Source: a virus
Taxonomy: Duplodnaviria > Caudoviricetes
Virus record (IMG/VR): IMGVR_UViG_3300028601_000026
Coordinates: 25,984-89,983 of that record
DNA length: 64,000 bases
Direction: 5' to 3' (one strand)
This document shows, piece by piece, positions 7,947 through 53,450 of the stretch. Position numbers and translations under genes: made by a program. A model generated the notes under the pieces. That model was not told the DNA's origin. It saw only the letters and a program-made list of their open reading frames with translations, and searched no databases. Position 1 is the first letter of the stretch. Every line of letters begins with the position of its first letter.

Positions 7947-10913
7947 GTGGCTAAGAGGAATTACAGCTCCGCGGTCATAAAAAATGGTGAGCTCTGGGTT
8001 ACGGGAGCCAATGCCCTGGGTGAACTTGGCCTTGGCGACCTGACAGATCATTGGGAGTTAACCCGTGTAGGTTCGGATAGTGACTGGGCACAGGTGGATA
8101 TCGGGGAAAGCTTTATGCTGGCCCGAAAAACCAGTGGCTCGTTGTGGGCGTCTGGAGATAACACCTATGGACAAGCGGGCCTTGGAGCTCTCACGTCGGT
8201 AGACATACTGACTCAGGTTGGCACGGATACCGATTGGGCGGCCTGTTCCTGTGGGGCACAGCATGGGGCCGCCATTAAGAGCGATGGCACCTTGTGGACG
8301 TGGGGTCAGTACACCTATGGGCGTCTGGGTCTTGGGGACTTAATCGATGCCCCGGTAACGGCTCCGACACAGGTTGGTACAGGCACGGATTGGGTAGCTG
8401 TAGCCGCCGGAGAAACGATAACTCTGGCATTGAAGTCGGATGGATCTCTGTGGGGGTTTGGCTATAACTCTCTAGGAGAGCTAGGCCTGGGTAACACGGC
8501 TACGGTCTATGCCCCTACCTGTTTATGGGAGGGCCAGGCTTTCGAGCATATCGACTGCGCTCAGGATGGCGCGGTGCTGGTACGCTCGGACGGTACTCTG
8601 TGGGCTTCCGGACATAATCTGAACAACCGGTTCACTTCTGACATTTCTCTGACCGTTGAGACCTGGACACAGGTAGGCGTGCGTACTGACTGGGCAAAAG
8701 CCGTACTGGCAACCTCGGAAGGGGCCATGCTGGCGTTGGATACCTCCGGGGCCCTGTGGAGTGTCGGCAGAAACTCCTCTGGCGCGGACGGTCTGCTGGG
8801 TCTCGGGGATACCACGGATCGTTCCGATCTGACCAATGTCACAACCCCTGCAGCTACTTGGAGCAAAATCACCGCCGGTTCCAATACCGCTTTTGCTGAG
8901 ACTTCCACCGGGGACCTTTATTCTTTCGGTTCCAATACTTACGGGGCTGCAGCCCTGGGAGACCCTGGAGTCACGGCTTACGTCACCTCCCCTACCCTGC
9001 TGACTTCTGGAACCTGGAGTCTTATGGGAGAGTGTCTTTTTGTAGAGCTTCCTGAAGAAGAAGACCCCATCATTGAAGACCCGAACTACCCCGGCAATGA
9101 GGACCCTGGTGATCCTACGATCACTTCAGGAGAGTTCCCCGGCCCCTATTTCAACGAGACCCCAGAGTGGCAGTCGGTGCACCGCTGGCTTAACAGTGAG
9201 CCCCTTCTGGCTCAGTTTGCTGACGGAGAGTTGGCTTACGATAACTGGCAGGGGCAGACTCTGACCAATCGGACCAAGCTGCTGCGGGACCGGATGGAGC
9301 TGTTTGGCAACTATCTGGATCTTACTCAATATCAACACCGTGGGCAGAATGTCATTCCGAACGTGGTGTTTGATATTTCTGTGGGAGAGCGAGATGCAGT
9401 TTATTACAACCCCGTTGATCAGACCTTTTACCCTGCCATAGCGAACAATACAGGCAAAGATGCGGTAGTCGGCCTGGCGGACGTTGCCAACAGCCTGGTG
9501 CTGTGCTCCGGGGTGGTTTCCAGACCTGATCTCTCCGGTCTAGGATTGGGACCCGGAGAAAGCCTGTACCTGTCAGCAACCGTACCGGGAGCTCTGACCA
9601 ATGAAGCCAGCTACCGGTTGGTAGGACGCTTTTTTTATGGGGACCTGGTGCAGCTTGGGGGCCCTGGAGGTGGAGGTGCCGGGACGGGGGATATCACTTT
9701 CGAGGACGTGTTTTATCATACCCTGAGAGAGTATTCAGGCTTCAGCAGGGTTGTGTACGACATCCTCAACAGTCCCAACTCAGTGCAGCCTTCGGCAGGT
9801 CTTAAGCACATTATCGGGGAGACCGCTTGGGAAGGTACGACAGGAGATACTTTTCTTACCTCTGAGATTCTGCCTCAGGAGCTGATCGATGAAGAGGTTT
9901 CTCTGAACGATTATTACGTTCATGTGGTGGCAGATGCCGCTGCGGACGTTTCTGTGGAAGCCTCTTATGACGGAGGCACAACCTACCAAAGTATTGATCA
10001 CCTCGCAGTGCAGTCGGTTACTTTGGGATTTACTTCTCTGCAGCTTCGGGTCTCCCTGGGGGGCAGTGGCAAAGTATATTCCTACGGGGTGCTGCTTCAA
10101 GTGGCTGAAACGGTAGCACAGAACTGCTCTCGAGCCGCCATGTATGAGACGCTGACCCTGCCGCAAGACATTCCCGAAGGGGCTGCGATCAGTATCCCAA
10201 ATGGTAATTATTTTAATGCCGACGGGATTTCTCTGCATGTGCACTATGATACGATCCGCTTGTTTGAGGGGTATCACTACCACGAAAATGTAAATGCTCA
10301 GGGGTTTGGTGTATCTATTACACCAATCTATGAGAAATGGCGCCCTGAGGCCGGCCATACTTTGGTATTCGAAGAGTATTACGGTTATGTTGATACTTCA
10401 GAGGAGAATCGACAGGAACTGATCAGGCTGAGCAACCTGGTGGAAACCTTTACGGGAACCCCCGGGCAGATTCTTATGTGGCCGACTACGGTGGCCCCTG
10501 TTGGATGGCTGCTGTACCGTAAGGCAACTCTGAATATTGCCGATTATCCGAGTCTGTTTGCTGTGATTGGCACGACCTTCGGAGGGGATGGCACGACGAC
10601 CTTCTGTTTACAGGATACCGCGGGGCGGAGCCCTCTGGCTGCCGGACAGGGCGATGGGCTGACCAACCGGGTTCTCGGAGATCTCGGAGGGGAGGAGCAG
10701 CATACCCTTTCCATAGAAGAGATGCCGGAACATACTCACACAGTCAACGTGGACAACAAAAACAACGTCGATCCCAACACGAGTGCTCACTCCGTAGGCT
10801 CAGACGGCAATGCCGATTATGGTTTGGATATCACTTCTTCTTCGGCAGGAGGAGGACAGCCCCATAATACTATGCACCCGTTCTTTGTCATTAACTTCAT
10901 CATCAAGTATTAA
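7947..10913 (+). CDS. Tail fibre: N-terminal RCC1 beta-propeller, internal fibre-anchor motif, C-terminal tail collar domain
   Basis: GTG start; about 7 RCC1 repeats (LWxxGxNxxGxLGLG); ETPEW...QTLTNRTKLL at aa ~402-449; collar PGQILMWP...YPSLFAVIGTTFGGDGTTTF...GGEEQHTLSIEEMPEHTH. Confidence 0.85.
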   Translation: MAKRNYSSAVIKNGELWVTGANALGELGLGDLTDHWELTRVGSDSDWAQVDIGESFMLARKTSGSLWASGDNTYGQAGLGALTSVDILTQVGTDTDWAACSCGAQHGAAIKSDGTLWTWGQYTYGRLGLGDLIDAPVTAPTQVGTGTDWVAVAAGETITLALKSDGSLWGFGYNSLGELGLGNTATVYAPTCLWEGQAFEHIDCAQDGAVLVRSDGTLWASGHNLNNRFTSDISLTVETWTQVGVRTDWAKAVLATSEGAMLALDTSGALWSVGRNSSGADGLLGLGDTTDRSDLTNVTTPAATWSKITAGSNTAFAETSTGDLYSFGSNTYGAAALGDPGVTAYVTSPTLLTSGTWSLMGECLFVELPEEEDPIIEDPNYPGNEDPGDPTITSGEFPGPYFNETPEWQSVHRWLNSEPLLAQFADGELAYDNWQGQTLTNRTKLLRDRMELFGNYLDLTQYQHRGQNVIPNVVFDISVGERDAVYYNPVDQTFYPAIANNTGKDAVVGLADVANSLVLCSGVVSRPDLSGLGLGPGESLYLSATVPGALTNEASYRLVGRFFYGDLVQLGGPGGGGAGTGDITFEDVFYHTLREYSGFSRVVYDILNSPNSVQPSAGLKHIIGETAWEGTTGDTFLTSEILPQELIDEEVSLNDYYVHVVADAAADVSVEASYDGGTTYQSIDHLAVQSVTLGFTSLQLRVSLGGSGKVYSYGVLLQVAETVAQNCSRAAMYETLTLPQDIPEGAAISIPNGNYFNADGISLHVHYDTIRLFEGYHYHENVNAQGFGVSITPIYEKWRPEAGHTLVFEEYYGYVDTSEENRQELIRLSNLVETFTGTPGQILMWPTTVAPVGWLLYRKATLNIADYPSLFAVIGTTFGGDGTTTFCLQDTAGRSPLAAGQGDGLTNRVLGDLGGEEQHTLSIEEMPEHTHTVNVDNKNNVDPNTSAHSVGSDGNADYGLDITSSSAGGGQPHNTMHPFFVINFIIKY

Positions 10914-19985: not shown

Positions 19986-21278
19986 TTAAAGAACGCTCTC
20001 CCAGTGGCCTGTGTTTTCCTGGGTAAGACTTTCCGAAGAGTTCCGGGTTCTTGAACAGGCAGAAGAGAGCCTCTCCAGAAAAACTTCAACAGATTCAACT
20101 TTTCTGTTGTAGGTTTTGAGAGCCAGAAAAACAGGCTCGGCCAGTCTCTGGGATACCCCTTGGGGATTTTCCCGCAGAAAAACACAGGCTTGAAACAGTT
20201 TTTTCAGGAGACTGCCCTGTTCTTTGCTGACAGAGTCTATGTAAGCCACGTGTCCTCGCATGATAGACAAAAACTGTTCATCCCTGGCGTGTTGTGTGAT
20301 AGCAAAGACCGCCCGGTCTTCCCCCACATTTTCCGTGGGAAACTCTGCCGCTCGAAAAGGATATAAAGAGAAATAGGTGTTCGCTGCCTCTGTGACAGAG
20401 GTACGGCAAGCATTGAACAATGCAGCACGAATCCGCTGAAACCGCTCAAGGTCCACCCGGGCTTTCACATTCAAAACGACTCCGAGAAACCGCTGATTAC
20501 GAAAAGGGTGGTTCTTCGGGGTAACAGACCATTTGTGCGTTTGGAATCCTCTGCGGGACATCACCACATGTACGTATTGGCGATATTCCTTAATAAGCTC
20601 TAGGGGAGCGTCTCCATCGACAAACAGCACCAAGTTGTCACAGTAACGCACGTACTCTAGGGAGGCCCGGGGGTATTCCTTTTGCTTTCGCGCTACCCAA
20701 GCCAAAATATCCCTGTCGTACAGCGCATATCCCACCAGATTGGAAAGCAGGGCACTGCAGGGAGACCCCTGCTGCAGTGTATGTACCCAACGGTCGCTCT
20801 GTCTCCTACGTACAATGCAGTAGCGGGCAATCAGCTTCGCGCCTGCCTCCGACATAGCTCCCAGAGCACACAGTGTCTTGACTATTTTACGCATGGAAAT
20901 GTTGTCAAAGTACCCTTTGATATCACAATGGACCATGTACTTCCTGCCCAGATATTTTTGCAGCTCTTTTTTGTAATTCACCCCTTTGCGGTACGCCAGT
21001 AGATGTTCATGCGGAAAGCTGTCTTGTATTTGATCAAAGGGGATATTCAGCGCGGTCTGGATACGCGCCAGAGTCGTATCTGACTTGTAGGTATCCCGTC
21101 CCTTGACTTTTACCAAGTGTTGCATATGGTTGCGGCGCAGACTCCCATTCTTATCTTTTCCTCCCACCCAGGACAAATACTTGGTCTTGATCTTCAGGAG
21201 AGCCCCCAGTTCATCCCAGCCGTGCACAAGACTCAAAGGAGAGTCAAATACCTCTTCTGTATATTTTTGGCACTTCAT
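19986..21278 (-). CDS. Retron-like reverse transcriptase with non-canonical YCDN motif
   Basis: AYRKG, HCDIKGYFDNI (motif A Asp), LQQGSPCSALLSNL, YVRYCDNLVL (codons tac tgt gac aac), QRFLGVVLN, thumb IRAALFN...GHVAYIDSV. Confidence 0.9.
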   Translation of the reverse strand: MKCQKYTEEVFDSPLSLVHGWDELGALLKIKTKYLSWVGGKDKNGSLRRNHMQHLVKVKGRDTYKSDTTLARIQTALNIPFDQIQDSFPHEHLLAYRKGVNYKKELQKYLGRKYMVHCDIKGYFDNISMRKIVKTLCALGAMSEAGAKLIARYCIVRRRQSDRWVHTLQQGSPCSALLSNLVGYALYDRDILAWVARKQKEYPRASLEYVRYCDNLVLFVDGDAPLELIKEYRQYVHVVMSRRGFQTHKWSVTPKNHPFRNQRFLGVVLNVKARVDLERFQRIRAALFNACRTSVTEAANTYFSLYPFRAAEFPTENVGEDRAVFAITQHARDEQFLSIMRGHVAYIDSVSKEQGSLLKKLFQACVFLRENPQGVSQRLAEPVFLALKTYNRKVESVEVFLERLSSACSRTRNSSESLTQENTGHWESVL

Positions 21279-22030
21279 TACAATCCTCCCGTTATTTCAC
21301 AAATTGAAGTCAGGTAGGTATCCACAGCGGAAGATACTTTCTGGGCTTTACGTAATGGGCTTTCTATAGTAGCAGGAGCGCTTCTCCAACGTATATAATG
21401 AGCCAAAGGTACTGAAATACTTTTTGGAGGCAACCACACCCCGTTATAGCAAAGCCCTACCAAAGATTGGGCCCTTCCCTCCAGGCGGAGCCCCGGAAGC
21501 TTGTACCTGTAAACTCGGGAAGACGCCCCCCTCAATCCCCCCACTATTCTATGATGGCGCGTAGCGGAATTAAGATAAGCCAGTGGGAAGAGGGCATAGT
21601 ACTGAGTGAACAGTTTCTGCATCGTATAGGGGTTAGCAGCGGCAGAGAAGGTTAAATAATCGTATCTGGAAAAAGAAATTATCGCGGCGTTTGGAAATAG
21701 GCTTCTCAGACGGTATCGGTTTTCCTCCTTATTAAACCAATCCTTGTTTACAAAAAACAGGTGCCGGAAGGATTTATACGCCGTTTTTCTCGGCAAGACG
21801 GGAGTGTCTCCTGCAGCGAGATCCACCGACAAGAGGCAGGGAGGAGACTCGTTCCCATGATCCTCGTAGAAAGTCCCTTCTCGGAGATCTTCAAGGCTTA
21901 GAGTTCTTTGCTCAAAAGAGGGGGATAGGAGCTGTTCAATCTCCGCTACAAGCTGTGGAGGCAGGCTTCCAGGGTCTTCAAAGTTCTCCAAAACAAGGTC
22001 ATCTCTTTGCTCATCGCTTTGCGTAGGCAT
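21278..22030 (-). CDS. Uncharacterised RT partner protein (250 aa)
   Basis: RBS aaagga; its TAA overlaps the RT ATG (taatg); acidic N-terminus, basic/aromatic C-terminal half. Confidence 0.8.
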   Translation of the reverse strand: MPTQSDEQRDDLVLENFEDPGSLPPQLVAEIEQLLSPSFEQRTLSLEDLREGTFYEDHGNESPPCLLSVDLAAGDTPVLPRKTAYKSFRHLFFVNKDWFNKEENRYRLRSLFPNAAIISFSRYDYLTFSAAANPYTMQKLFTQYYALFPLAYLNSATRHHRIVGGLRGASSRVYRYKLPGLRLEGRAQSLVGLCYNGVWLPPKSISVPLAHYIRWRSAPATIESPLRKAQKVSSAVDTYLTSICEITGGL

Positions 22031-22077
22031 GCTTTTTCCTTTCTCTGTAAGGTTGCTAAGCTGTTACTAGGGACATG

Positions 22078-22108
22078 TTCTTATAACAAATAAGTCTTCA
22101 ATTTTATG
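22078..22108 (-). promoter_or_regulatory. Phage promoter-like motif CAnAAA-N13-TTGTTATAAGAA, copy 1
   Basis: Exact 12-mer shared with 41408 and 53420; about 48 nt upstream of the RT operon. Confidence 0.7.
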
Positions 22109-22216: not shown

Positions 22217-23260
22217 ATGAGTGGCAGAAAGAGACCACATCCCATGATCACCCTTGTTGACCAACAGAACGACCAGGATTTTTCTGTATTTCATAAAATA
22301 CTCGGAGGCCTTCAAGATGAAGTGCTATTAGGGGCTCTCAACGACATCGAGCTCGATTCAGAGATTTATGCCAAACTGCCCATGGAACAGTTTGCTCTTC
22401 CGGAATTACGGAAATTCCCCGTGAACTCCGCAGAGGATGCCCTGCTCAGTAAACTGTACTTCGAGCAACAGCGCCCTCTACTGTCGGAGGCCCTGGAGGA
22501 TAAAGTCGCTGAGCGCATCAGTACGTTCCTGAACCTGTACAATCTTCCCGAGGAAGTATTTGCCCAGGCTGGCAGTGTCAAAGAAGCTGCCGAGGAGAAA
22601 ACGCCTATCTATCTCCTGCCAGAACAACGCTTATGCCGAGTTGCTGGCACGGAGGATCTTGTCAAAGCGGCTCAGCTGTTTGAACGTGAAAAAACCAAGC
22701 TGCCCATCCCTCAGCGTGTCGAGTTTTCTCAGAATTTTGTTAAGTCTGCGTCCACTTTCGGACTGTTGGAAATCCCCTGTGATATTGCCAAGTATGCCAG
22801 CTGCCTGGATACAGACCTGGGTACTACCCGTTATCTGTTGGACATCCGAGCAGCGGCTGTGCGGCGCAAAGGGGGAGATCCCAGTGTTTATGTAAAGCTG
22901 GCAAGCCTCCTGGGGCATATTGAGGTCACTCCAGACAAGGAGGAGCTTTCCAAACTGGCGAGTCTTATCTACACCCTGGATAAGCAACATGGCCTCGATG
23001 CGCCGGCTTATGATAGGAAGCTGCCCTGTGCCTATACCACCGTGTTCAACCAGGCCGACTCTGCTGTGGAAAAGCAGGCAGCCCAGGAAGAGGTCCCCTT
23101 CCGAGAACTTACCAAAGCGGAGCTGGTTGCCCGCTATGGGGAAGACCTCGTTGCAGAGGTTGAAGGGCACGATGGCGAAGTTGACTACGATAAGTTGCAG
23201 GACATCCTGCACCGTTCCGGGGTGGGTGTACCGGGAAGCACCTCGGAGGGGGCAGACTGA
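22217..23260 (+). CDS. Head-assembly-associated hypothetical protein
   Basis: 347 aa (start may be 22244); FALPELRKFPVNSAED resembles the DUF6582 motif; first gene of the terminase block. Confidence 0.6.
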   Translation: MSGRKRPHPMITLVDQQNDQDFSVFHKILGGLQDEVLLGALNDIELDSEIYAKLPMEQFALPELRKFPVNSAEDALLSKLYFEQQRPLLSEALEDKVAERISTFLNLYNLPEEVFAQAGSVKEAAEEKTPIYLLPEQRLCRVAGTEDLVKAAQLFEREKTKLPIPQRVEFSQNFVKSASTFGLLEIPCDIAKYASCLDTDLGTTRYLLDIRAAAVRRKGGDPSVYVKLASLLGHIEVTPDKEELSKLASLIYTLDKQHGLDAPAYDRKLPCAYTTVFNQADSAVEKQAAQEEVPFRELTKAELVARYGEDLVAEVEGHDGEVDYDKLQDILHRSGVGVPGSTSEGAD

Positions 23261-23940
23261 TGGACTCCTTGCAGGTATTAGCCGGCCACCCCATCGATCT
23301 TTATCGGAAGCTGGAGGCCACTTTTCCTGACTCGGAAGCTCCCTGGTTGGGGTGGGAACCGGAAACGGTGCTTGCTTCTCTCCCGGAGGTTACCGATGAC
23401 CTTGCCAAAGACAAGATTCTGGCTATCCAGGCTCTGGCTTCCAACAGTTCCTTAGGCTGTTCCGTAGCAATCGCCTTTGAAAAAGTGGTGCATGGTTTTT
23501 GTAACAACCCCTGCATAATGGATGCTGCGCAACCCCCTGGAGTAGAGGAGATCTACTATGCCGTAACTCAAATCCGAGCTCTGGTACAGGAAGTCCATGG
23601 CAAACCGGCTGTTTTCTCTGGGCAGGTTCCTGGCTATGTCGCAGCTGCAGGCCATTATCATGGGTGGTTCTTGTTCCCGGAAGAACTCTCTTTTGCCTCC
23701 GAGTTTCTTGAGCATCTCTCCGGAGTGGTACCAGGTTCCCGTAGGTACACAGACTATGCGGATCTGTTTACACAGGGGAAAGACTTGCTGAAAGCACTTG
23801 AGAACACCTCTCTGAGTCTGGGGGATCTGAAGGCTATGGATAATCTGCCGGAGGATTCTCCGGCAGCTAACCTACTACGCAGGGTGCTGCGCTGTCTGTT
23901 GTACGATCCGACACTGCCCTACCAGGAGGGGATTTCCTAG
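23260..23940 (+). CDS. Hypothetical protein upstream of terminase
   Basis: 226 aa, coupled upstream (tgatg), ends one base before the terminase start. Confidence 0.7.
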   Translation: MDSLQVLAGHPIDLYRKLEATFPDSEAPWLGWEPETVLASLPEVTDDLAKDKILAIQALASNSSLGCSVAIAFEKVVHGFCNNPCIMDAAQPPGVEEIYYAVTQIRALVQEVHGKPAVFSGQVPGYVAAAGHYHGWFLFPEELSFASEFLEHLSGVVPGSRRYTDYADLFTQGKDLLKALENTSLSLGDLKAMDNLPEDSPAANLLRRVLRCLLYDPTLPYQEGIS

Positions 23941-23941
23941 T

Positions 23942-25522
23942 ATGGCGGTGGTTGAAGTAGCTCTAGATTTGACAAAGGCCGATGCTGCTCAGGCGTTGCT
24001 GCACCTGGAGGGTCGGCCTTATTCATTGCGCAACTACCCAATGTTTGTGGATATCTTTAACTCTCCCTGGCCTCGAGTCCTCATGAAATCCGGGCGACAG
24101 GTATCCAAAACCATCACTATGGCCGCGTTGATGGTGACCGATGCCTCCATGGTACCTCACAAACCTTCCCTGTACGCCAATGCCTCTGGAAATCAGACCA
24201 GTTCTTTTTCCACGTCGAAACTCGATCCCTTTCTCCTGCACAGCCCCGCGATTTATCACAACCTAATGCAGGCCAAGAACGTCTTGAATAACGTGCTGTA
24301 TAAGCGCTTTGCCAACTGGTCAGAATTGCGCCTTACCTACTTTTCTGAATCGGCGGACCGAGTACGCGGTATTTCCGGACACCACTTTTACCTGGATGAG
24401 ATACAGGACATTCTCTACGACGCCATCATTGACGCAGAGGAGTGCCTGTCCGCAGCCAGTGATCCTCGATTTACCTATGCGGGGACCTCTAAAACCCTGA
24501 CTTCGACCCTGGAGTTTTTCTGGACGTTGTCCACACAGAAATCCTGGGTAATCAAGTGTGAAGCTTGCGGTAAGTGGAATCTGCCTTCCATTGAAAATAT
24601 TCAGCGCAAGGGCCTGTGCTGTAAAAAGTGCGGACACTTGCTGAACACTTTTAAGGGTATTTGGCGCTCCATGCGGGAGTTTGATGGAAAAGAGCCCCTT
24701 TTCGATGGCTACCATATTCCTCAAATTATCCTGCCTTTGCACTGCAACAGCCCGGAAAAGTGGGCCAAACTCATTGAAAAAATGGAGACCTACCCCTCCT
24801 ATAAATTCAATAACGAAGTTCTGGGGCTTCCCGAAGGGGAAGGTGATTCTCCCATAACCGAGGATATGCTGCGGAAGGCTTGTATACCTGAGCTTCGCAT
24901 GGAAACCCGGCTGACGGAACACAACGCCGCGGGAGCTACCTATTTCGTGGCAGGTATTGACTGGGGGGGAAATGGCATTGAAGGAACCAGTCGGACTACC
25001 TTATCCGTGTACGCGGTGTATCCCGAGCGAGTACAGAGCACAAAAATCTACGGCCAAATCTTCGGGCCGGGCGATCCCACCAAGCATGTAGAAGAAATCT
25101 CCTCCGCCTTGAAGCGCTTCGGAGTGCATATGGCTTTTGGTGACCATGGCGGGGGAAACTTCGCCATGGCCATGCTGCAGAATATCACCCCTACTGTACG
25201 CATCGTGCCTGTGATGTATACGGATCAGGCAGCCCCCTATCGTTGGGATGAGGATGCCCATCGCTATACAGTGAATCGTACCCGACTGATCGATGCCTTT
25301 TTCATGGCCATGCGCACCGGAGAGGTTCATACCATGCGCTGGGAAGATTTCCAGAGGTTTTCTCCAGATATTCTCGCTGTCTATCAGGAAATCATCGGAG
25401 ATAATCAGGGGAAAGGCCGACGTGTTTGGCGCCGCTATCCCTCGAAGCCGGATGACATCCTGCATAGCATGGTGTTTGGCTGGTTCGCCGCCCGTGTCAT
25501 GAGTGGCAATATGGAGTTCTGA
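23942..25522 (+). CDS. terL: Terminase large subunit (GpA-like)
   Basis: Walker A MKSGRQVSKT, Walker B YLDEIQD, CxxC/CxxC Zn module, nuclease AGIDWGG, FGDHGGG, PDDILHS. Confidence 0.9.
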   Translation: MAVVEVALDLTKADAAQALLHLEGRPYSLRNYPMFVDIFNSPWPRVLMKSGRQVSKTITMAALMVTDASMVPHKPSLYANASGNQTSSFSTSKLDPFLLHSPAIYHNLMQAKNVLNNVLYKRFANWSELRLTYFSESADRVRGISGHHFYLDEIQDILYDAIIDAEECLSAASDPRFTYAGTSKTLTSTLEFFWTLSTQKSWVIKCEACGKWNLPSIENIQRKGLCCKKCGHLLNTFKGIWRSMREFDGKEPLFDGYHIPQIILPLHCNSPEKWAKLIEKMETYPSYKFNNEVLGLPEGEGDSPITEDMLRKACIPELRMETRLTEHNAAGATYFVAGIDWGGNGIEGTSRTTLSVYAVYPERVQSTKIYGQIFGPGDPTKHVEEISSALKRFGVHMAFGDHGGGNFAMAMLQNITPTVRIVPVMYTDQAAPYRWDEDAHRYTVNRTRLIDAFFMAMRTGEVHTMRWEDFQRFSPDILAVYQEIIGDNQGKGRRVWRRYPSKPDDILHSMVFGWFAARVMSGNMEF

Positions 25523-25525
25523 TCT

Positions 25526-25560
25526 AAAAAAAATCCCGAGTGCTTTTGCCTCGGGATTTT
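25526..25560. terminator. Bidirectional intrinsic terminator
   Basis: aaaaaaaatcccgag-tgcttttgc-ctcgggatttt. Confidence 0.9.
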
Positions 25561-26187
25561 CATTCTTTCACTCACTAAGCGGGGGAGAAGGCTAGCCTTT
25601 TGGGTAGCCTTCTGCTTGGTTTGGCAGACTATGTCTGCCTGTCAGAGATGGAAAATGACCCATCTGAGTGAAACTCTTGTCTTCTGTCTTGGGCCCGTCT
25701 GGGGCGGGTTGAGGTTACTATGAGATCTATTCCATGCTCCAGCCGATGGTCGGTTGAAAAAGTCTTCAGAGTGCCTGTAGGAGCACCGCTCCGGAAGGCT
25801 ACCTGAAGCTTTTTCATAAGACCTCGAGCTGGAAAAAGTAAGTGCCGGACTTTGTCCGGCTTATTCTTTTTCCAAAGAATAATCTAACCTCTAAGTGTTT
25901 CCAGTACAAACCTGTTCTTTCTAGGAAGGTATGCTCCGAAAACACCCATCTTTCTGTCCTGCTTACTCCTCTCTACTATGGCTAGACCGGGTGGGATCCG
26001 ATCCGCCGGCGCCGCAGGATGACTGGGTGGGGGTGACCGCGTCCGCGTGCCATCTCGGTCTCCAAGGGAAGCCTCAACCTCCGGTTGAGAGTGCCGAAGG
26101 CACGTGCTTCCTAGAGGAGACCCCTCGTAGAAGACAGACTTTGTCTGCCGATGGAGAGGTTCTTCTCCATTCAACTAGAAGGAGTTT
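25561..26187 (-). ncRNA. Candidate large structured non-coding RNA (~630 nt), no recognised family
   Basis: No credible ORF; many nested helices, three GAC-AWA-GUC hairpins, a C(UUCG)G tetraloop on the minus strand; bounded by the Sm-like gene stop and a terminator. Confidence 0.65.
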
Positions 26188-26415
26188 TTACTTCCGGGCA
26201 ATGCTGGCTACATGGTCGAGGTTAATGAGGGCTTCCCGTACGCTGAGCTCCCCATTAGCCAGCGTGACTTCAGATCGAAGCGTAAAGAATTTACCCTTAG
26301 TGGACACGACCGTACCGGTCAGGGCCGCTCCGCCGTAGATAAATACTCTTGCCTCTTTCCCCAGCCAGGCTTGTATCGCTTCGTAGCCCATTGGTGAAAA
26401 TGTCGTGTCAGTCAT
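26188..26415 (-). CDS. Sm/Hfq-like fold protein (75 aa)
   Basis: WLGKEARVFIYGGAALTGTVVS (Sm1-like) and ALINLDHVASI (Sm2-like). Confidence 0.6.
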   Translation of the reverse strand: MTDTTFSPMGYEAIQAWLGKEARVFIYGGAALTGTVVSTKGKFFTLRSEVTLANGELSVREALINLDHVASIARK

Positions 26416-26509
26416 GACATCACCTGCCTAAACCCGGTCTTGCATGTTCTTTTAACAAAACATGGTCCTTTTTTTGAAAAATTGAAGCAGGCAAAATATT
26501 ATTATCTCC

Positions 26510-29413
26510 TTAGGCAACGGCTTTCTTGGCCTCCCCATAGCTGGGACCATACCCAACGTCATATTTCCAGGGTACCGGAAGCCAGGGAGCTTTTTCACGG
26601 ATATTCTCCATAATGATTTTGTCCAACAGCTGCTTCATACCGGTCTGTCCTTTAGGGGCCTTGAAGCCGATGGAGTCATGCACGGTAAGAATGATTCGAC
26701 CTTCCCTGGAACGGAGAGCCTCCCGCAAATCGATCATGTTGGTCTGCACCAAATCATTGCTGGTGGTCTGAATACGAGCATTCACAGCCTGCCGACTGAT
26801 ACCGTTAAGCAGACTGCTGTTGTACGACGCTGCGGCATACCGGCGCTTGCGCCCCGTGAAGGTGTAGGAAAATTTATGCCTTAGTGCAAAGTTGATGGTA
26901 TTTCGGATATAACGGGCCACTCCAGGATAGGTTTTGAAAAACTTATCGAGATACTCCTGAGCTTCCTGCTCAGAAACCCTAATACGCATATCCGACCACA
27001 GCTGGGCAGCCAGCCCTTTGGCACTCATCATATATATAGTGCCAAAGTTAACTTTCTTAGCAATCTGCCGCAATACATAGTAGGGAGTTGACTTATCCTC
27101 TTTGTAGAGGCAGAGGTCTTCGTAGCTGTACTCCCCCAAGCCCGCAGCAGTCAGGCAATGCAAATCCTTGTCTTCCAAAAATGCCTGGGTTAAGGCAAGG
27201 TCCCGACTGTACGCTGTCAGAACACGCATCTCCGCATTGGCAATGTCCAGGTCATAGAAATCCTCCTCTTCCGGGTTATCCGGAAGGAACAAGGCCTTCA
27301 GATTGAGAAAAAGTTCTAAGTTACTGATTTTTAACAGGAAGGGGACGTTCTGAAGGTTGGGGTCACTGCTACTCAACCGGCTTGTAGCCGTCCCATTCTG
27401 ATGGTACTTCCCATGCAAGAACCCATCGAGGGCGGATTTCTGCAGCCAGGGATTCAGGTACGTCCCCTTGATCTTCTCCATCCTCCGCCAATCCAGAAAA
27501 TAGTTGAGGAACACATCATCCGGAAAGTCATCTGAGAGGAACTTGATTGTCTCGGCGTCAGTGCAGGGAGCTCCGGCATCCGTTTTCTTGATGATCGGCA
27601 GCTTCTTGTCTTCATAGAGGTATTTGGCAATAGCATTGCCATTGCTCAACGGAAAAGTGTACCCTATATCCGTGAAGATCTTATCCTCCACTTCTGCCAT
27701 TTTCTCTTCCAGGATTTTGATGTATTCCTTGGTGCGCTCCCGGTCCAATCGCACCCCGTAGAACTCCATCTCGGAAATCAGATCCGCCATAGGATTAACG
27801 ATATTCCGCACCGTCCACATCAACGGCTGCATCTGCAGAGGCTTTTTGATCTTTTTCTCAATCTTCAGAACCCTTAGGGCTTCCTCTTTCAGCCTCCCCA
27901 ACTGCTTAAGCATGATCTTACGCGTCATTACCCCGTCTACTGCGGCATAGAGCAGCAGTTTCGGAACAGCTAGATCCTCATAGGTAACCTCGGGCGTAAT
28001 CTCCGGAGGTTCGAACTCCAGCGGTATCAACAGTTCTTCCCGAGGTACCTTGCTCAGTAGCTTGAAGATCACCCCAGCCGACTTCTTGGTAAGAACAAGC
28101 TCCCCTTTGGATTTTTTATACTTGGGCTCTGTCAACCCCTTGGATTCCGTCATGCTCAAAAATTTCCGGGAGATCCATCGGGAGTTAAGGCTGCGCCGTT
28201 CTGTATCCGTCAGGCTCAGCCAGTAGCTGACATAAGCCTCCACCAGTTTTTCCCGGTACGCTTTTACCGCCTCTTTGAGGGTTTCTTTTCGCGCCTTTTG
28301 CAAAGAAAGCTTCTCCCGCTCCAAATCCTCCTCGTAGCGGGTATCCGTAGGGAAATAGTCTGTAGCCAACACCTTCAGAGAATACTCGCCTTTCTTTCCC
28401 TCATCCAACTGGTGCTCTATCAACATGGTATCCCAAGTCACCTCGGGGGTTTTCAGGCCTTCATGATAGCGCAGCCACTGCTGGTCAAACTTTGAGTTGT
28501 GCATAACGAGAGAAAAAGCCGGGTGATGCATGACCTGCAGTAATTTATCCCGAATTCTCTGGAAGTGTTCTTTCGAGAAAGGCAAAGCCCGATGCTCCCA
28601 GGGGAACGCCAGGCCTTGATTGTCTTCCCAAGACATAGACACCATGATACAGCGCTGTTTTGGGTCGTGGGGTAACAAGGAGGTAGTCTCCGTATCCACA
28701 GCTACCGGACGTTTTTTATTTTCTGCATGGGACTTGTCCAGTGCTGCCAGGCACTCATCCAGCTGTGCCACTATGCCTTCGCAGTCGGTCGGAGTACGGA
28801 TATCCAGTTCATCACAATTGATGCCTGAAGACAGGTACCCAAAAGCTTTTTCAATATCGCGCTTGAGGACCGTGATATATCCTGTCTCCTTCAACACTTG
28901 TACAGGTGAGATTGTTGGTAAAACTGTATACTTGACCCCTCCATAGTGGATGGTCTGAAATACTCCTCGAATCTCCCCATGCTTTTGCCGAAATCCCAAA
29001 GCCTTAGCGGCATCCGCGCCTAAGGGGATCAGAAGTTTCGGTTTGGACAGATCGAGTCGAGCTTGTAGTTGGTGACTGCACTTCTCTAAGTCTTGCTGCT
29101 TTATTTTGTAATTAAGTTCCTTGGGGACACAGCGTACAGCATAGATATACTCTGCACTAAACTGCTCAGCCCTAGGAAGCTTGCTCTTAATCTCGCTGAC
29201 AAGATTACGCAACAGCCACCCACCTTTACTGCAATACGCTCCTTTCTCTGCGTCAATATCCATGGGAAATCCTGCAATAAAAGTAATGTCCTGGTGCTGA
29301 GCCAGAGCATATTTACAGAACTCCTCTGTGTAGAGCCGACACCCAGTACAGGGCGTAGGCTTTAGACAAATAGCTTCTTCCTCTGCCAACAATTTTTTAG
29401 CTGTGTCTACCAT
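26510..29413 (-). CDS. polA: Family A DNA polymerase with N-terminal uracil-DNA glycosylase-like domain and 3'-5' exonuclease
   Basis: UDG-like CTGCRLY, AVRCVP, LLIPLGADA; Exo AVDTET, HNSKFD, YAAVDG; Pol DLDIANAEMRV, RQIAKKVNFGTIY, TVHDSI. Confidence 0.95.
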   Translation of the reverse strand: MVDTAKKLLAEEEAICLKPTPCTGCRLYTEEFCKYALAQHQDITFIAGFPMDIDAEKGAYCSKGGWLLRNLVSEIKSKLPRAEQFSAEYIYAVRCVPKELNYKIKQQDLEKCSHQLQARLDLSKPKLLIPLGADAAKALGFRQKHGEIRGVFQTIHYGGVKYTVLPTISPVQVLKETGYITVLKRDIEKAFGYLSSGINCDELDIRTPTDCEGIVAQLDECLAALDKSHAENKKRPVAVDTETTSLLPHDPKQRCIMVSMSWEDNQGLAFPWEHRALPFSKEHFQRIRDKLLQVMHHPAFSLVMHNSKFDQQWLRYHEGLKTPEVTWDTMLIEHQLDEGKKGEYSLKVLATDYFPTDTRYEEDLEREKLSLQKARKETLKEAVKAYREKLVEAYVSYWLSLTDTERRSLNSRWISRKFLSMTESKGLTEPKYKKSKGELVLTKKSAGVIFKLLSKVPREELLIPLEFEPPEITPEVTYEDLAVPKLLLYAAVDGVMTRKIMLKQLGRLKEEALRVLKIEKKIKKPLQMQPLMWTVRNIVNPMADLISEMEFYGVRLDRERTKEYIKILEEKMAEVEDKIFTDIGYTFPLSNGNAIAKYLYEDKKLPIIKKTDAGAPCTDAETIKFLSDDFPDDVFLNYFLDWRRMEKIKGTYLNPWLQKSALDGFLHGKYHQNGTATSRLSSSDPNLQNVPFLLKISNLELFLNLKALFLPDNPEEEDFYDLDIANAEMRVLTAYSRDLALTQAFLEDKDLHCLTAAGLGEYSYEDLCLYKEDKSTPYYVLRQIAKKVNFGTIYMMSAKGLAAQLWSDMRIRVSEQEAQEYLDKFFKTYPGVARYIRNTINFALRHKFSYTFTGRKRRYAAASYNSSLLNGISRQAVNARIQTTSNDLVQTNMIDLREALRSREGRIILTVHDSIGFKAPKGQTGMKQLLDKIIMENIREKAPWLPVPWKYDVGYGPSYGEAKKAVA

Positions 29414-41279: not shown

Positions 41280-41407
41280 TAACCGTCTCCTTGGCCGTTA
41301 AAAAGTATGGCGATCCCTCTGTGAAATTGAAGTCATGGACACAAAAAAAAACCCCGGAGAAAACTCCCTCCAAGGCTAAAAGCTTGCCCAGCTTTCACCG
41401 AGACAAC

Positions 41408-41438
41408 TTCTTATAACAAATTAATCCTAATTTTTGTG
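41408..41438 (-). promoter_or_regulatory. Promoter-like motif CAnAAA-N13-TTGTTATAAGAA, copy 2
   Basis: Heads the minus-strand replication operon. Confidence 0.7.
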
Positions 41439-43252: not shown

Positions 43253-43732
43253 ATGTCTTTTAAGGAGTTCTCCGAATCTGCAGTAAGTAGTGGCTTTTCC
43301 GAAGCCCCTTCCCTGGGCAAATTGATGAGTGGAGCGGGCTCCGGCCCCTCCAGTAATCCCCTTCAGGAGGCCCTGAAGAAAAAAGGGTTGACCTTGAAGG
43401 TGCGATACCTGACAGGAGCTGTCTCTGATGATGGCTTTCGTATGCTCTTGGAAGACATCATGACGCGGAGCCTGCACCGGGGAGAAGTCCTCCAAGCCTC
43501 TGGAGATGTCGCGGTGCTGCGGGAAGACCACACCTTCGATAAGTCCGGAGAATATATTGTGGCTCTGAAATATATGGAGGTGCTTTCTTTGGACGGGCAT
43601 CTGGGCGAACTCCATGAAGAACTTAAAGAACAAGGTCTGCCTGAACCCGCCCCTACCGATATGGAGGAAGTTCTGAAAAATACCTTCCTGACCCCTGGAA
43701 CCCCCTCACCCATTGCCTTTGATATGGAGTAA
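43253..43732 (+). CDS. Hypothetical protein between portal and RNAP
   Basis: 159 aa ORF in tight operon. Confidence 0.7.
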   Translation: MSFKEFSESAVSSGFSEAPSLGKLMSGAGSGPSSNPLQEALKKKGLTLKVRYLTGAVSDDGFRMLLEDIMTRSLHRGEVLQASGDVAVLREDHTFDKSGEYIVALKYMEVLSLDGHLGELHEELKEQGLPEPAPTDMEEVLKNTFLTPGTPSPIAFDME

Positions 43733-43736
43733 GTGC

Positions 43737-46700
43737 ATGCCTGCACCTTCGCTTCGCCGCATAGTAGACAATCCGGATAACATCCGGCGAGCCATCTTTG
43801 ACAGCGCCATACGAGCCTTGCAGGGAAAATTCCCCATACAGGCCAAGCACGTCACCATCCAGGCCAAGAACTTCCGGGTGGAGCACGTACCCTTGTCCCA
43901 TAATCAGCAAAAAACCATCCTGATGGCTCGGGGCAACGCTTCGGATCCCGTCTATGCGGATCTGGTGATTACCAGCAACCAAACCGGAAAAACCCTGCTG
44001 GAAGTGCCCAAGCATCGCATTATGAGCCTGCCTTACTACACCAATCGGTATACCTTCCTGGTGGATGGGAATGAATACAATGTAGTGAATCAGCTGCGTA
44101 CCAAGTCTGGTGTCTATACCCGGCGGCGAGGCAACGACACCCTGGAAAGCGCGTTCAACCTGGCTAAAGGGGCCAACTTTAAGCTACTCATGGACCCTGA
44201 GACCGGAGTATTCAAAGTAGACATCCTGCATTCCACGCTGCCTTTGATCGGGGTCCTACGGGTACTGAGCACTCCTGAGACAGAGATCCGGCAAGAACTC
44301 GGGCCTGATCTGTATACGGCCAACTTGATTTCTGAAAATCAGTTCAACAGGACTTTGAACACCCTGTATGAAAAACTGGTGCGCTACAAATCTCCTCTGG
44401 GGGACCGTGCCTCCAAAGAAGAAAAGATGCGGGCTATTCGTCAGTATTTTGAAGGTACAGAAATCAATCCGGAAACCACCAAGTTGACCCTCGGGACAGC
44501 TTTTTCCTCCGTGTCTTCAAAAACCATCCTACAAGCCGCTAAAAAAATACTGCGGGTCTACAACGAAGAAGACGATCTGGACGAGAGGGATAATCTCGAG
44601 TTCCAGAAAGTCTTTTCCGTAGAGGACTTTGTGCGTGAAGTTCTGGAGAAAAACACGGCAGACCTGCGTAAAATCAAACAGCGCCTGGACTCCTTCTCTC
44701 CCAGTGGTAAACAAGCGGAAGACCGCCTTTCCATAAAAGCTGCCTTAAGCCCTGCCTACTTTTCCAAGCCGCTCAAAAACTTTATTGTCACCAGTTCTAT
44801 AAGCCGTCTTCCCGGGCAGATTAACCCCATGGAGATGGTATCCAGTTCCGGAATTGTCACCCGGCTGGGAGAGGGGGCCATCTCTTCTGACCGAGCGGTA
44901 CCGGATGAGACCCGCGCTGTAAACTACTCTTACATGGGAGTCATTGATCCGGTAGAAACCCCGGAAAGCGGGAAAATAGGTATCGATAACCGCTTTACCC
45001 TCACCGCCCTGAAAGGTACAGACAATGAGTTGTACCAGGAGGTTGTGAACTGCCATACCGGTCAGCGAGAAAAGAAACGTCTCATAGAACTGCGAGACAA
45101 AATTCTTGGCTTCCCGGATGAAAATCCGGAGGCTGCGAAAAAACCTTCAGATATCGTGCCTGCCACCCAACATGGGAAACTGGTGAAAGTTCCCCGTCGA
45201 TCCCTTGATTACCAGATCCCTTCTATCAGCCACCTGGGATCTGTAGCCGTCAATTCCCTGCCGTTTGTCAATGCCAATCAGGCAAATCGTATCGTTATGG
45301 GTTCCAAGCACATACAGCAGGCTCTCCCTCTCAAGTATCGGGATAAGCGTCTGGTGGAGGCTGATCTCGGGAACGGTAAATCCACTTACGACGAGGTAGG
45401 CAGTTTCATGCTGCCCAAAGCCCCTGTAGATGGCAAAGTGATCCGTATTGATGACGACTTCATCTACATTCGTGGAGTAGACGGAGTTACCCATCAGGTG
45501 GACTATGAGAAAAATATGCCTCTGGCGACCAAGACCATGCTGGACAATACCCTCACGGTCAAGGTAGGGGACAGCGTGAAAAAGGGAGAACCCCTGGCAG
45601 ACTCCAATTTTACCAAAGATAAAAAGCTGGCTTTGGGGAAAAACCTGCGAGTCACTTATCTGCCCTACTTCGGGATGAATCATGAGGACGGCATTGTCAT
45701 TTCTGAGGGCGCCGCCAAGAAATTAACCTCTGTACATTCTGAAAAAGTGGTGATCGGGCGTGAGGGCTCTCGCTCTTTTGATAAGCGGAAGTTTGCCAAC
45801 TACTTCCCTACAAAATTCACTCAGGAACAGCTCACTAAACTGGATGAAGAAGGGATTGTAAAAAAAGGCCAACTTCTTCAAAAGGGGGACCCGATAGCCC
45901 TGGTACTGGAAGATAATTCGGAGTCTCGATCCAATCAAATCCTGGGACTGCTCCACAAAAGTTTGCGTGACCCTTACCGCGATGCCAGCGAAGTCTACGA
46001 GGAGAATTACCCCGCGGAAGTTCTCGAAGTTCACAAAACCGGTCGGGTGGTGACCGTACTGCTAAAGATGGAAAAGCCCATGACGGTGGGGGATAAGCTC
46101 TGTTATGACCAATACACCGAGGTCTTGACCGATAGAGGATGGGTCAGAATATCAGAGGTGACCTGGGAAGACAGGATTTGCACCCTGAACCCCTCTGGAG
46201 AGATTGAGTACCAAGGCTTTACGGAAACCCATAGGTACCCACAAGGGGGTCGCATGTACAGCCTGGTGTCCCAACAGCTGGACATGCTGGTCACTGATAA
46301 GCACCGTAACTACGTTAAGCTTAGAGGTGCAGAAGATTTTTCCCTGGTATCCGCTGATGAGATGTTCGGTAACCGGGTCCGCTTCAAGAAATCTGGTAAC
46401 TGGGTTGGGAGCTCCCCTGAAGTGATCACCCTCCCTTCTCTCGAAGTGAAGGCTGGGCAGTCTGGAAACGGTTCCCGTTGGATGCCTGAGGTTCAGATTC
46501 CGGTCAAAACCTACATGATGTTGTTGGGGGCCTACCTCTCCGAGGGGAACTTGGTCTTTCATGAGGATAGTGGTTCTTTTGGCATCGATATCTGTTGCTA
46601 CGCCGAACATAAAAGAGACGCTCTGCTTCCTGCCTTGGATGAAGCTGGTCTAAAATATACACGCACACTGGACAAAGGGCAGGTACGCAGCATTAGGATC

Positions 46701-53064: not shown

Positions 53065-53419
53065 AGGGCCTCCTTGCCCTTCCAGGGCATTTGGCGGGGT
53101 GACGGTTCCCCTGAAAAAAATTGAAACCCTCCGGATACGTCACCTCCAGAGGGTTGATTGCTTCAACTAGATACCGAATATGTCAGGCCAGAACTCCATG
53201 GCATTCCTCCCTCTTACGAGAGGAGGCCACCAATGCCTGTGCCTGTTTTCGGGCCTCACTTTCTGCCGGGAACCGAGTGACAGCTCCTAAAATGGTTACT
53301 TGCCCGTTTTCTACATAGAACAGACGTACTTTTTGCATAGCTTCCTCCCGAAAGAATCCCTACCTAGCTTCTGTTCCCTGGCCCATCCAGAGAATGAGAA
53401 GCTAGATTCCTTCACCATA

Positions 53420-53450
53420 TTCTTATAACAATTTCAGGTACTTGTTTTTG
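53420..53450 (-). promoter_or_regulatory. Promoter-like motif CAnAAA-N13-TTGTTATAAGAA, copy 3
   Basis: Same 12-mer and upstream CAAAAA as copies 1 and 2. Confidence 0.7.

Follow-up and report, generated by a model that had tools for sequence, protein, structure and literature searches.

A modular array of hairpin units that keeps its shape without its sequence, next to a gene for a predicted Sm-like protein in a phage clade

In the sponge small RNAs CsrB and RsmZ, hairpins 15-20 nucleotides (nt) apart carry GGA loops that are bound by CsrA/RsmA. Another recurrent layout, in which a short A/U-rich single strand lies between two hairpins, is that of the Sm sites of small nuclear RNAs and of the Hfq module of small RNAs. 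In T4-type phages, PeSL cassettes are promoter-stem-loop modules that flank hypervariable inserts and carry small open reading frames (ORFs). Here we analysed a window of 64,000 nt, the whole stretch from position 25,984 to 89,983 of the IMG/VR virus record IMGVR_UViG_3300028601_000026 (Caudoviricetes), which is part of a phage-like contig (G000:C101) binned with a 3.0-Mb metagenome-assembled genome (MAG). Its longest ORF-free stretch, a gap of 665 bases, lies between the genes of the large terminase (TerL) and of a protein of 75 amino acids (aa) with a predicted Sm-like fold, next to the family-A DNA polymerase gene polA. We show that this gap holds three or four self-folding units in a row and not one fold. 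Each unit consists of a small hairpin X, then a 17-nt hairpin Y with a 7-bp stem and a 3-nt loop, then long variable hairpins Z. A clade of phages of about 100 kb keeps the shape of this array without sequence conservation.

The CsrB/RsmZ sponges and the layout of Sm and Hfq sites appear to be the nearest functional analogies. As in the sponges, many hairpins on one putative transcript share a conserved loop motif while their stems are free, and they could be seen as multivalent sites for a small protein. However, the array hairpins are 105-260 nt apart, have NAA triloops and stand inside multi-helix units; moreover, the candidate partner is Sm-like, and the RNA would be phage-encoded and fused to the protein's own message. 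The succession of hairpin, A/U stretch and hairpin beside an Sm-fold gene resembles Sm and Hfq sites, but there is no LSM or Hfq Pfam match here, the linker is not always U-rich and the sites come in tandem. Like PeSL cassettes, the array has repeated small stem-loops, hypervariable inserts and cassettes gained or lost between close phages, whereas what is inserted here are hairpins that do not code, and the module belongs to a single locus and a single protein gene. Like ROOL and GOLLD RNAs, it fills several hundred nt of a phage genome with dense structure; those RNAs are, in contrast, single conserved folds with sequence conservation, while the array is modular and its sequence has turned over fully. 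In the literature that we searched, neither arrays of this kind nor Sm-like proteins of phages are described. We regard the array as categorically new as a sequence feature; its RNA nature is what we infer.

Folding of the gap and its coding potential

The initial annotation, made from the letters alone, had placed a densely structured non-coding RNA of about 630 nt in the largest gap of a tightly packed genome. The gap is indeed the largest ORF-free stretch of the window, and its dense structure is borne out. Its minimum free energy (MFE) is -277.7 kcal/mol on the minus strand (z = -8.1) and -292.3 kcal/mol on the plus strand (z = -10.4), far better than the shuffled controls, of which none out of 20 folded as low on either strand. 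A scan with 200-nt windows gave z values of -6.6, -6.5 and -4.4 within 25500-25999; most windows in the coding flanks lie between +1.3 and -2, with one at -3.9. The equivalent gaps of five related phage loci (L048, L049, L017, L055, L051) reach z values of -3.8 to -20.7. The helices that had been listed by eye are present in the MFE structure, and the gap ends, as proposed, at a terminator (Table 1).

The non-coding status holds as well. ORFs within the gap (43-135 aa) translate to low-complexity peptides rich in R, S and P. A Pfam search with the 96-, 62-, 135- and 43-aa ORFs gave nothing significant (best E 0.24, below cutoff), and tblastx of the gap against the fetched related loci found the ORFs unconserved even in the closest relative, with fragments of 13-15 aa at most. 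Conserved small ORFs were rejected, since blastn and tblastx show nothing beyond these fragments and the X2-Y2 module described below. By blastn the gap has no match in 50,697 phage records. The claim that the gap lacks a tmRNA, RNase P, group I/II intron or riboswitch core agrees with a search of the window with 4227 Rfam 15 covariance models, in which no family scored at or above its gathering threshold; these families include, besides those named, GOLLD, ROOL, HEARO, OLE and 6S. Over 25400-26500, at E <= 10, terminator-type chance matches far under threshold were the only ones, and ARAGORN found no tRNA or tmRNA gene in the window. Among 16 related loci, the Rfam search returned group I introns inside polA and nothing else. 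These introns (RF00028, 52-83 bits; L049:8593-8804, L003:10337-10536 and L013:8096-8311, all minus) lie beside or between pieces of the polA match, while the polA of the window reads through and is intron-free.

Within the gap, the units can be followed from the stop codon of the 75-aa ORF towards TerL (Table 1). Y1 begins 39 nt past that stop codon; in the global MFE its segment pairs alternatively. The MFE also has long-range pairings, such as that of GUCUUCU at 26129-26135 with AGAAGAC at 25679-25685. In units 2 and 3, a closing stem, P1, makes each unit a 3- or 4-way junction in the MFE. Such closures are predicted, again by MFE, for two of the three window units and for many units of 14 other arrays.

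Recurrence of the array in related phages

Relatives of TerL number in the hundreds in metagenomes, with 85 among the matches listed at 45-85% identity. Scans of IMG/VR with TerL and polA as single proteins gave no confirmed locus, and an alignment-based TerL scan yielded 73 loci. In the 26 array-bearing loci, TerL is 51-85% identical to that of the window. Relatives share the gene order reverse transcriptase (RT), orf347, orf226, TerL, gap, small ORF, polA. Nucleotide similarity between the gap and the gaps of relatives was absent by blastn, except for X2-Y2 in L079 and L080. In these two loci (TerL 85% and small protein 70% identical to those of the window), similarity is lost 35 nt past the stop of the small ORF and regained at the terminator; X2-Y2, the sole stretch of the array that matches, does so at two places in L079; L080 matches it too. 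The shape recurs where the sequence does not. At the position of X1, L079 has GGAGAGC-AGU-CUCUCC, and at that of Z1 a three-way junction of the same shape, a stem around two hairpins, with unrelated sequence.

The number of units changes readily. The 1163-nt gap of L079 holds five X-Y modules and a first Y just past the stop codon; L080 encodes an identical small protein, yet it has one complete extra unit. In relatives, units measure about 100-280 nt, and 2-8 of them, each folding independently, stand in tandem over 0.5-2 kb. The claim of one large RNA of about 630 nt is not supported by this pattern. A single RNA with one global, ROOL/GOLLD-like fold would account for the long-range pairing in the MFE (26129-26135 with 25679-25685), and its size would be near that of large phage non-coding RNAs. 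We nevertheless regard it as very improbable, given the 2-8 units per array, the gain or loss of a whole unit between L079 and L080, and the lack of an Rfam match in the window or, the polA introns aside, in the 16 related loci.

The primary sequence is not conserved, so classical covariation within a single alignment is impossible, the small hairpin Y excepted. One pair of homologous units allows a comparison: L011 and L012 have X, Y and the inner P1 in common, while the sequences of the outer P1 differ wholly and the pairing is kept (UUUCGGAU.../...GUCCGAAA versus AGCUAUGAC.../...GUCAUAGCU). This covariation is real but anecdotal. In L014, duplicated units about 705 and 1015 nt past TerL differ by an inverted loop (GGCC-GAAG-GCC versus GGCC-TTCG-GCC), a sign that the loop may have been inverted at the DNA level, through its palindrome, as the array evolved. 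Contigs of seven relatives (L004, L005, L008, L018, L075, L077, L078) end inside or just past the array; these ends could be assembly breaks at repeats or true genome ends.

The most constant part of the array is Y, which was located by pattern scan. With an AAA or AUA loop it occurs in three minus-strand copies in the gap and nowhere else in the 64 kb. Both strands of the 3-Mb MAG together hold 93 such hairpins with AAA or GAA loops; two of the 93 fall in the gap, where about 0.02 would be expected per 665 nt. In the relatives we counted over the first 2300 nt past TerL (26 loci, 54 kb) and found 105 Y hairpins (66 with AAA, 29 with TAA and 10 with GAA loops), all on the polA-sense strand; the remaining 204 kb of these loci contain three AAA-loop hairpins. 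Neighbouring copies lie about 105-260 nt apart, and an array has 2-8 of them. In 77 copies from 18 genomes, the consensus has G1 (91%), G6 (82%), the loop N-A-A, C12 (81%) and C17 (87%), followed by A (74%) or G (22%) and then by an A/U-rich, G-poor stretch. Within a genome, two to three apical pairs and the loop are near-constant and the outer stem is variable. Between genomes the apical motif switches (GG-AAA-CC, GC-UAA-GC, GU-GAA-GC, GC-AAA-GC), the window having AC-AAA-GU. The independent evidence for Y is its enrichment, strand, spacing and G-U/A-C bias alone.

The gap is a convergent junction, since plus-strand TerL faces the minus-strand 75-aa ORF and polA. This setting would suit a passive insulator, a stack of hairpins and terminators between the TerL operon and the replication genes that needs no protein partner, blocks read-through and antisense transcription and shields the 3' ends of the Sm-like/polA message from exonucleases. 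Terminator scoring picks out Y2 and the terminal hairpin on either strand, U-rich runs follow most Y copies in L079, and the number of units varies freely, as such a stack would allow. On the other hand, a U-tract stands directly after the terminal hairpin (U8) and Y2 but not after Y1 and Y3, and in many genomes Y lacks a U-tract on either strand, including most copies in L012, L003, L007 and L048. Insulation also leaves unexplained why the exact 7-bp stem, the NAA loop, G1, C17 and the following A persist while TerL identity falls to 51-85%, why 0.6-2 kb of extra structure is present and why the array is strictly coupled to one small protein family. We consider this explanation unlikely, though it deserves to be kept in mind.

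Other repeat systems were rejected as candidates. A CRISPR array or solitary CRISPR repeats, which would have direct repeats of 24-48 nt and non-palindromic spacers of 25-50 nt, differ from an array whose conserved element has 17 nt, whose spacing is 105-260 nt and whose spacers are self-complementary. Taken as spacers or antisense sequences, the Z arms match nothing convincingly in the 3-Mb MAG; a 19-nt identity that overlaps Y2 and its flank is the best. No template/variable repeat pair of a diversity-generating retroelement was found in 1-30000.

Table 1. Features of the array and its surroundings in the window
Feature	Positions	Strand	Basis or remark
Gap, bounded by the stops of TerL (25522) and of the 75-aa ORF (26188)	25523-26187		
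X1, UGGAGA-AGAACC-UCUCCA	26152-26169	minus	MFE; first helix past the stop of the 75-aa ORF
Y1, GGCAGAC-AAA-GUCUGUC	26133-26149	minus	Pattern scan; 7-bp stem, AAA triloop, one G-U
Z1, variable domain	25892-26122	minus	MFE
Z1 three-way junction, GGUCUCC/GGAGACC and GGAAGC/GCUUCC around two hairpins	26057-26122	minus	
Hairpins of this junction, GUGCC-UUC-GGCAC and CUCAACC-GGA-GGUUGAG	within 26057-26122	minus	
Z1 hairpin	26034-26052	minus	
Z1 domain	25957-26019	minus	
Z1 13-bp hairpin	25892-25948	minus	
Unit 2	25711-25891	minus	MFE
P1 of unit 2, GAGGUUA/UAACCUC	25885-25891 / 25711-25717	minus	MFE
X2, 9 bp	25861-25882	minus	MFE
Y2, GCCGGAC-AAA-GUCCGGC, then ACUUACUUUUU	25844-25860	minus	Scores as bidirectional terminator-like site
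Z2, nested long hairpin; domain UUCCAGC-CGA-GGUC / GACC-UCG-GCUGGAG	25737-25834	minus	MFE
Inside this domain, UGAAAAAG-CUUCAG / CUGAAG-CUUUUUCA and GGAGC/GCUCC	within 25737-25834		MFE
Small hairpin after Z2	25720-25735		
Unit 3	25566-25673	minus	MFE and pattern scan
P1 of unit 3, UUUCACUC/GAGUGAAA	25666-25673 / 25566-25573	minus	MFE
X3	25646-25665	minus	
Y3, GGCAGAC-AUA-GUCUGCC	25623-25639	minus	
Z3	25577-25617	minus	
9-bp stem AGAAGGCUA/UAGCCUUCU, in Z3	25586-25613		MFE
Helices UCCUGC/GCAGGA, GGUUGAG/CUCAACC and terminal terminator			MFE
Terminal intrinsic terminator, 12-bp stem then U8	25529-25561	minus	Sequence and MFE; weaker U-tract on the plus strand; terminator shared with TerL
75-aa Sm-like protein gene	26188-26415	minus	
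Promoter-like 17-mer TTTGTTAAAAGAACATG	26443-26459	minus	28 nt upstream of the Sm-like start codon
Other copies of the 17-mer	22074-22090, 41404-41420, 53416-53432	minus	
polA, with uracil-DNA-glycosylase(UDG)-like and exonuclease domains	26510-29413	minus	
Primase-like 1184-aa protein	beyond polA	minus	
TerL, gpA-type large terminase, convergent neighbour bounding the array	23942-25522	plus	PF05876 E 1.9e-11; phrog_675 E 1.7e-47
Block of orf347, orf226 and TerL	22217-25522	plus	
250-aa ORF and retron-like RT cassette	19986-22030	minus	

The Sm-like protein and the strand of the array

An Sm-like neighbour had been claimed from the outset, and structure prediction supports it. The AlphaFold 2 model of the 75-aa protein (7-sequence alignment, predicted local distance difference test score 83) has a helix at 11-15 followed by five strands that form a barrel. 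The top Foldseek matches in the PDB are RimP, Gemin6/7, Hfq, SmAP and archaeal or spliceosomal Sm/LSm proteins, with TM scores of 0.60-0.67 and E values of 1.6e-3 to 2e-2, and structural matches in the Atlas are the RimP C-terminal domain and DUF6897. A weak, sub-threshold match to MM0924 (E 0.0025) was obtained against NCBIfam. The protein is thus predicted to have the Sm/LSm/Hfq fold, a helix plus a bent five-stranded barrel. The family comprises 60 clusters among 1.8 billion representatives. Some members have two to three domains in tandem (P0123, with 237 aa at L081:4001-4714, P0169, P0126 and P0132); these fusions are compatible with ring formation and prove nothing.

The Sm-like gene is tied to the structured region across the whole clade. 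A search with a hidden Markov model of the family revealed homologues in 23 related loci. Wherever spacing was worked out, the homologue immediately precedes the first Y; in most relatives this Y lies about 25-42 nt past the Sm-like stop. Four distant family members led to five further loci, which were fetched by the protein family alone. Those with enough flank show polA, the small gene, 0.9-1.2 kb without a convincing gene and a convergent gene, called TerL in L081 alone. In four of the five, Y hairpins with AAA or AUA loops follow the small gene, and L083 has one AAG-loop hairpin; L081, which encodes a tandem-domain protein, has five Y hairpins downstream, of the type GGU-AAA-ACC. As the loci found with the model and those fetched by family repeat the same linkage, protein family and array form one conserved module.

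The minus strand had been assigned to the array on the strength of a C(UUCG)G hairpin at 26091-26103. That argument carries little weight: the site is a 13-nt palindrome, GUGCC-UUC-GGCAC, with a triloop or a 5-nt loop, and the cUUCGg register would leave a C-C mismatch. The minus strand is likely all the same, on the counts of G-U versus A-C pairs, the U8 terminator and the promoter-like motif. Among Y copies with a single non-Watson-Crick pair, that pair, read on the polA-sense strand, is G-U in 23, A-C in four and another in two; an A-C pair on this strand corresponds to G-U on the opposite one. When 16 arrays were folded with G-U pairs disallowed, 31 of the 1x1 mismatches were G-U and 16 A-C, despite a slight excess of C/A. 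The arrays of L012, L056 and L014 also end with a strong hairpin and a U-run on the same strand, just before the TerL stop. The promoter-like 17-mer (TTTGTTAWAAGAACATG) occurs four times in the window (0.21 expected by chance), always on the minus strand, and at least three of these copies precede minus-strand units, namely the RT cassette, the Sm-like gene and a helicase operon. Its 12-nt core is found again a short way upstream of the Sm-like gene in L006, L007, L023 and L077-L080, and likewise upstream in L083; it is also found on the RT strand near the start of the RT match in L006, L008, L023, L014, L015 and L051. Some of the relatives that carry it have TerL proteins just 57-59% identical to that of the window. 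The 17-mer would act as a promoter. Taken together, G-U bias, terminal U-run and promoter-like motif suggest that a minus-strand RNA of about 0.9 kb is transcribed, comprising the small ORF and the array.

The same hairpins could act as DNA, extruded or single-stranded, serving as promoters for a phage RNA polymerase (RNAP), as priming signals, as terminase or initiator sites or as a genome end. The early promoters of the N4 virion RNAP have a 5-7-bp stem and a 3-nt loop, occur in several copies in a non-coding stretch and have conserved bases near the loop, the other stem bases being free as long as they pair (PMC4496689). Y resembles them in shape, and its apical pairs and loop are near-constant within a genome, like a protein-binding site. 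Moreover, the phage has its own RNAP beta-like protein, the array adjoins TerL and contigs of relatives often end in or just past it, although contig breaks are to be expected at internal repeats anyway. The N4 hairpins work in template-strand DNA for a T7-like RNAP, and three promoters drive ORFs (PMC4496689); here up to eight Y alternate with long hairpins in a stretch free of ORFs, and it is the gene-sense strand that the G-U bias favours. An excess of G-U over A-C of 23:4 is unexpected for duplex binding sites, and the convergent junction lies at the cumulative GC-skew maximum, which is not origin-like. The DNA-level explanation also gives the long Z hairpins and the P1 closures no role. 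As an N4-type hairpin promoter Y fits in shape, but a T7-like RNAP to go with it was rejected: the RNAP that the phage encodes belongs to the multisubunit, beta-like type, and a single-subunit RNAP of the T7/N4 type (PF00940) was not found in the genome, a weak absence since control genomes gave nothing either. In all, action at the DNA level seems rather improbable, though the likeness to N4 and the contig ends within arrays speak for keeping it in view.

Besides helicases, the phage encodes this RNAP beta-like protein itself, which has 1835 aa (43713-49220, plus) and matches RNAP beta-subunit PHROGs at several places. At about residues 776-1016 it matches PHROGs labelled thymidylate synthase or ribonucleotide reductase; an inserted element such as an intein would be our guess. 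An NrdD-like anaerobic ribonucleotide reductase of 1149 aa (57796-61245, minus) matches NrdD PHROGs at residues 3-245 and 839-1127 and other PHROGs at about 248-404, which may be an insertion. A tail-fibre-like protein of 988 aa contains, at 8135-8491 (plus), three diverged 51-nt direct repeats about 150 nt apart, and its N-terminal part matches PHROGs of the RCC1 type ('regulator of chromosome condensation').

A candidate phage ribonucleoprotein

We favour a modular RNA that is transcribed and has the Sm-like protein as its partner, a tentative reading to which we would give slightly less than an even chance. A number of observations weigh against it. Neither Pfam, LSM and Hfq profiles included, nor PHROG yields a family for the 75-aa protein, and some proteins with the Sm fold do not bind RNA. 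In L054, the Sm-like gene comes after two of the Y hairpins, and a U-rich linker behind Y is not universal (L012 and L007 are examples without one). Covariation among the aligned Y copies was not used, because the copies had been selected for pairing and the count would be circular. Over the whole region, the plus strand has the lower MFE in five of six genomes. This looks compositional, as the shuffled sequences shift likewise, and choosing the strand by MFE was dropped since plus-strand shuffles fold lower too. Finally, G-T pairs form in single-stranded DNA as well, and many of the stems are perfect palindromes, so that hairpins or cruciforms at the DNA level are possible.

If the array is transcribed together with the Sm-like gene, the minus-strand unit of about 0.9 kb would begin at the 17-mer, continue with the 75-aa ORF and the array and end at the U8 terminator, the gap making up its non-coding two-thirds. 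Each repeated unit has a variable X, a Y of fixed shape (G-N6-[A/U/G]AA-N6-C, followed in most cases by A and by a linker rich in A/U and poor in G) and a Z of one or more long hairpins with free sequence, and in the predicted folds a stem of 6-18 bp often closes it as a 3- or 4-way junction. The co-encoded protein could dock at Y and its linker in unit after unit, which would turn the transcript into a multivalent ribonucleoprotein (RNP), with its fast-evolving Z arms variable and exposed. Transcription, protein binding, cleavage into units and a biological role are what we infer; the RNA might serve as a sponge or decoy, as a chaperoned regulator or as a scaffold.

The RT cassette on the other side of the TerL block offers a different partner. 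Its RT (19986-21278, minus) has homologues in about 28 loci and is a core gene of the clade. All 15 aligned members have the motif C Y[CS/G]DN instead of YxDD, so the Asn is conserved and not a recent defect. Units of the array could be templates, primers or cofactors of this RT, in the manner of retron msr-msd RNAs, with the Sm-like protein as chaperone. The topology would fit, since a closing stem, small hairpins and a long variable hairpin within 100-250 nt are retron-like and the RT is in the same genome, with retron RTs as its best matches (St85 family, E 6e-24, below cutoff). An inverted-repeat closure of the retron type (a1/a2) is predicted for two of three window units and many elsewhere, as MFE predictions alone. 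RT, Sm-like gene and array occur together in every relative with enough flank, but this co-occurrence is inseparable from shared ancestry. The promoter-like motif is common to the RT cassette and the Sm-like gene, also in diverged relatives, but it precedes other operons too. Retron RNAs abut their RT, whereas the array lies 3.7 kb from the cassette and 5.4 kb from the RT ORF, and the three-gene block on the opposite strand intervenes, as it does in all relatives. A retron RNA defined by adjacency on the same strand was hence rejected (the array extends to 25561 and the RT operon begins at 22030, with the plus-strand block in between). By eye, no consistent priming G follows the 5' arm of P1, the RT has motif C Y[CS]DN across the clade, and we know of no tandem multi-unit retron RNAs. 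That the array serves the RT in this way is, in our view, quite improbable. Returning to the RNA partnered by the Sm-like protein, a more elaborate version is doubtful but worth stating. In it, a ring of phage-specific Sm-like proteins would be loaded onto cloverleaf-like RNA units in tandem, each with a constant 7-bp/NAA hairpin, with the hypervariable arms as evolving specificity elements, and might cooperate with the retron-like RT, for example as a multi-template or multi-primer array or as decoys against host defences.

Discovery based on Rfam or blast is blind to such elements, and a simple descriptor, G-N6-NAA-N6-C-A recurring at intervals of 100-260 nt on the downstream side of a small beta-barrel gene, finds the arrays readily. 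If the array is transcribed and bound, it would represent a new class of phage RNA in which shape is kept while the sequence turns over completely, and a natural modular RNA scaffold with hypervariable arms. It would also be a candidate RNA partner for the orphan, clade-conserved retron-like RT. A phage-only family of Sm-like proteins would be paired with an RNA, and RNPs of the Sm type would enter phage biology.

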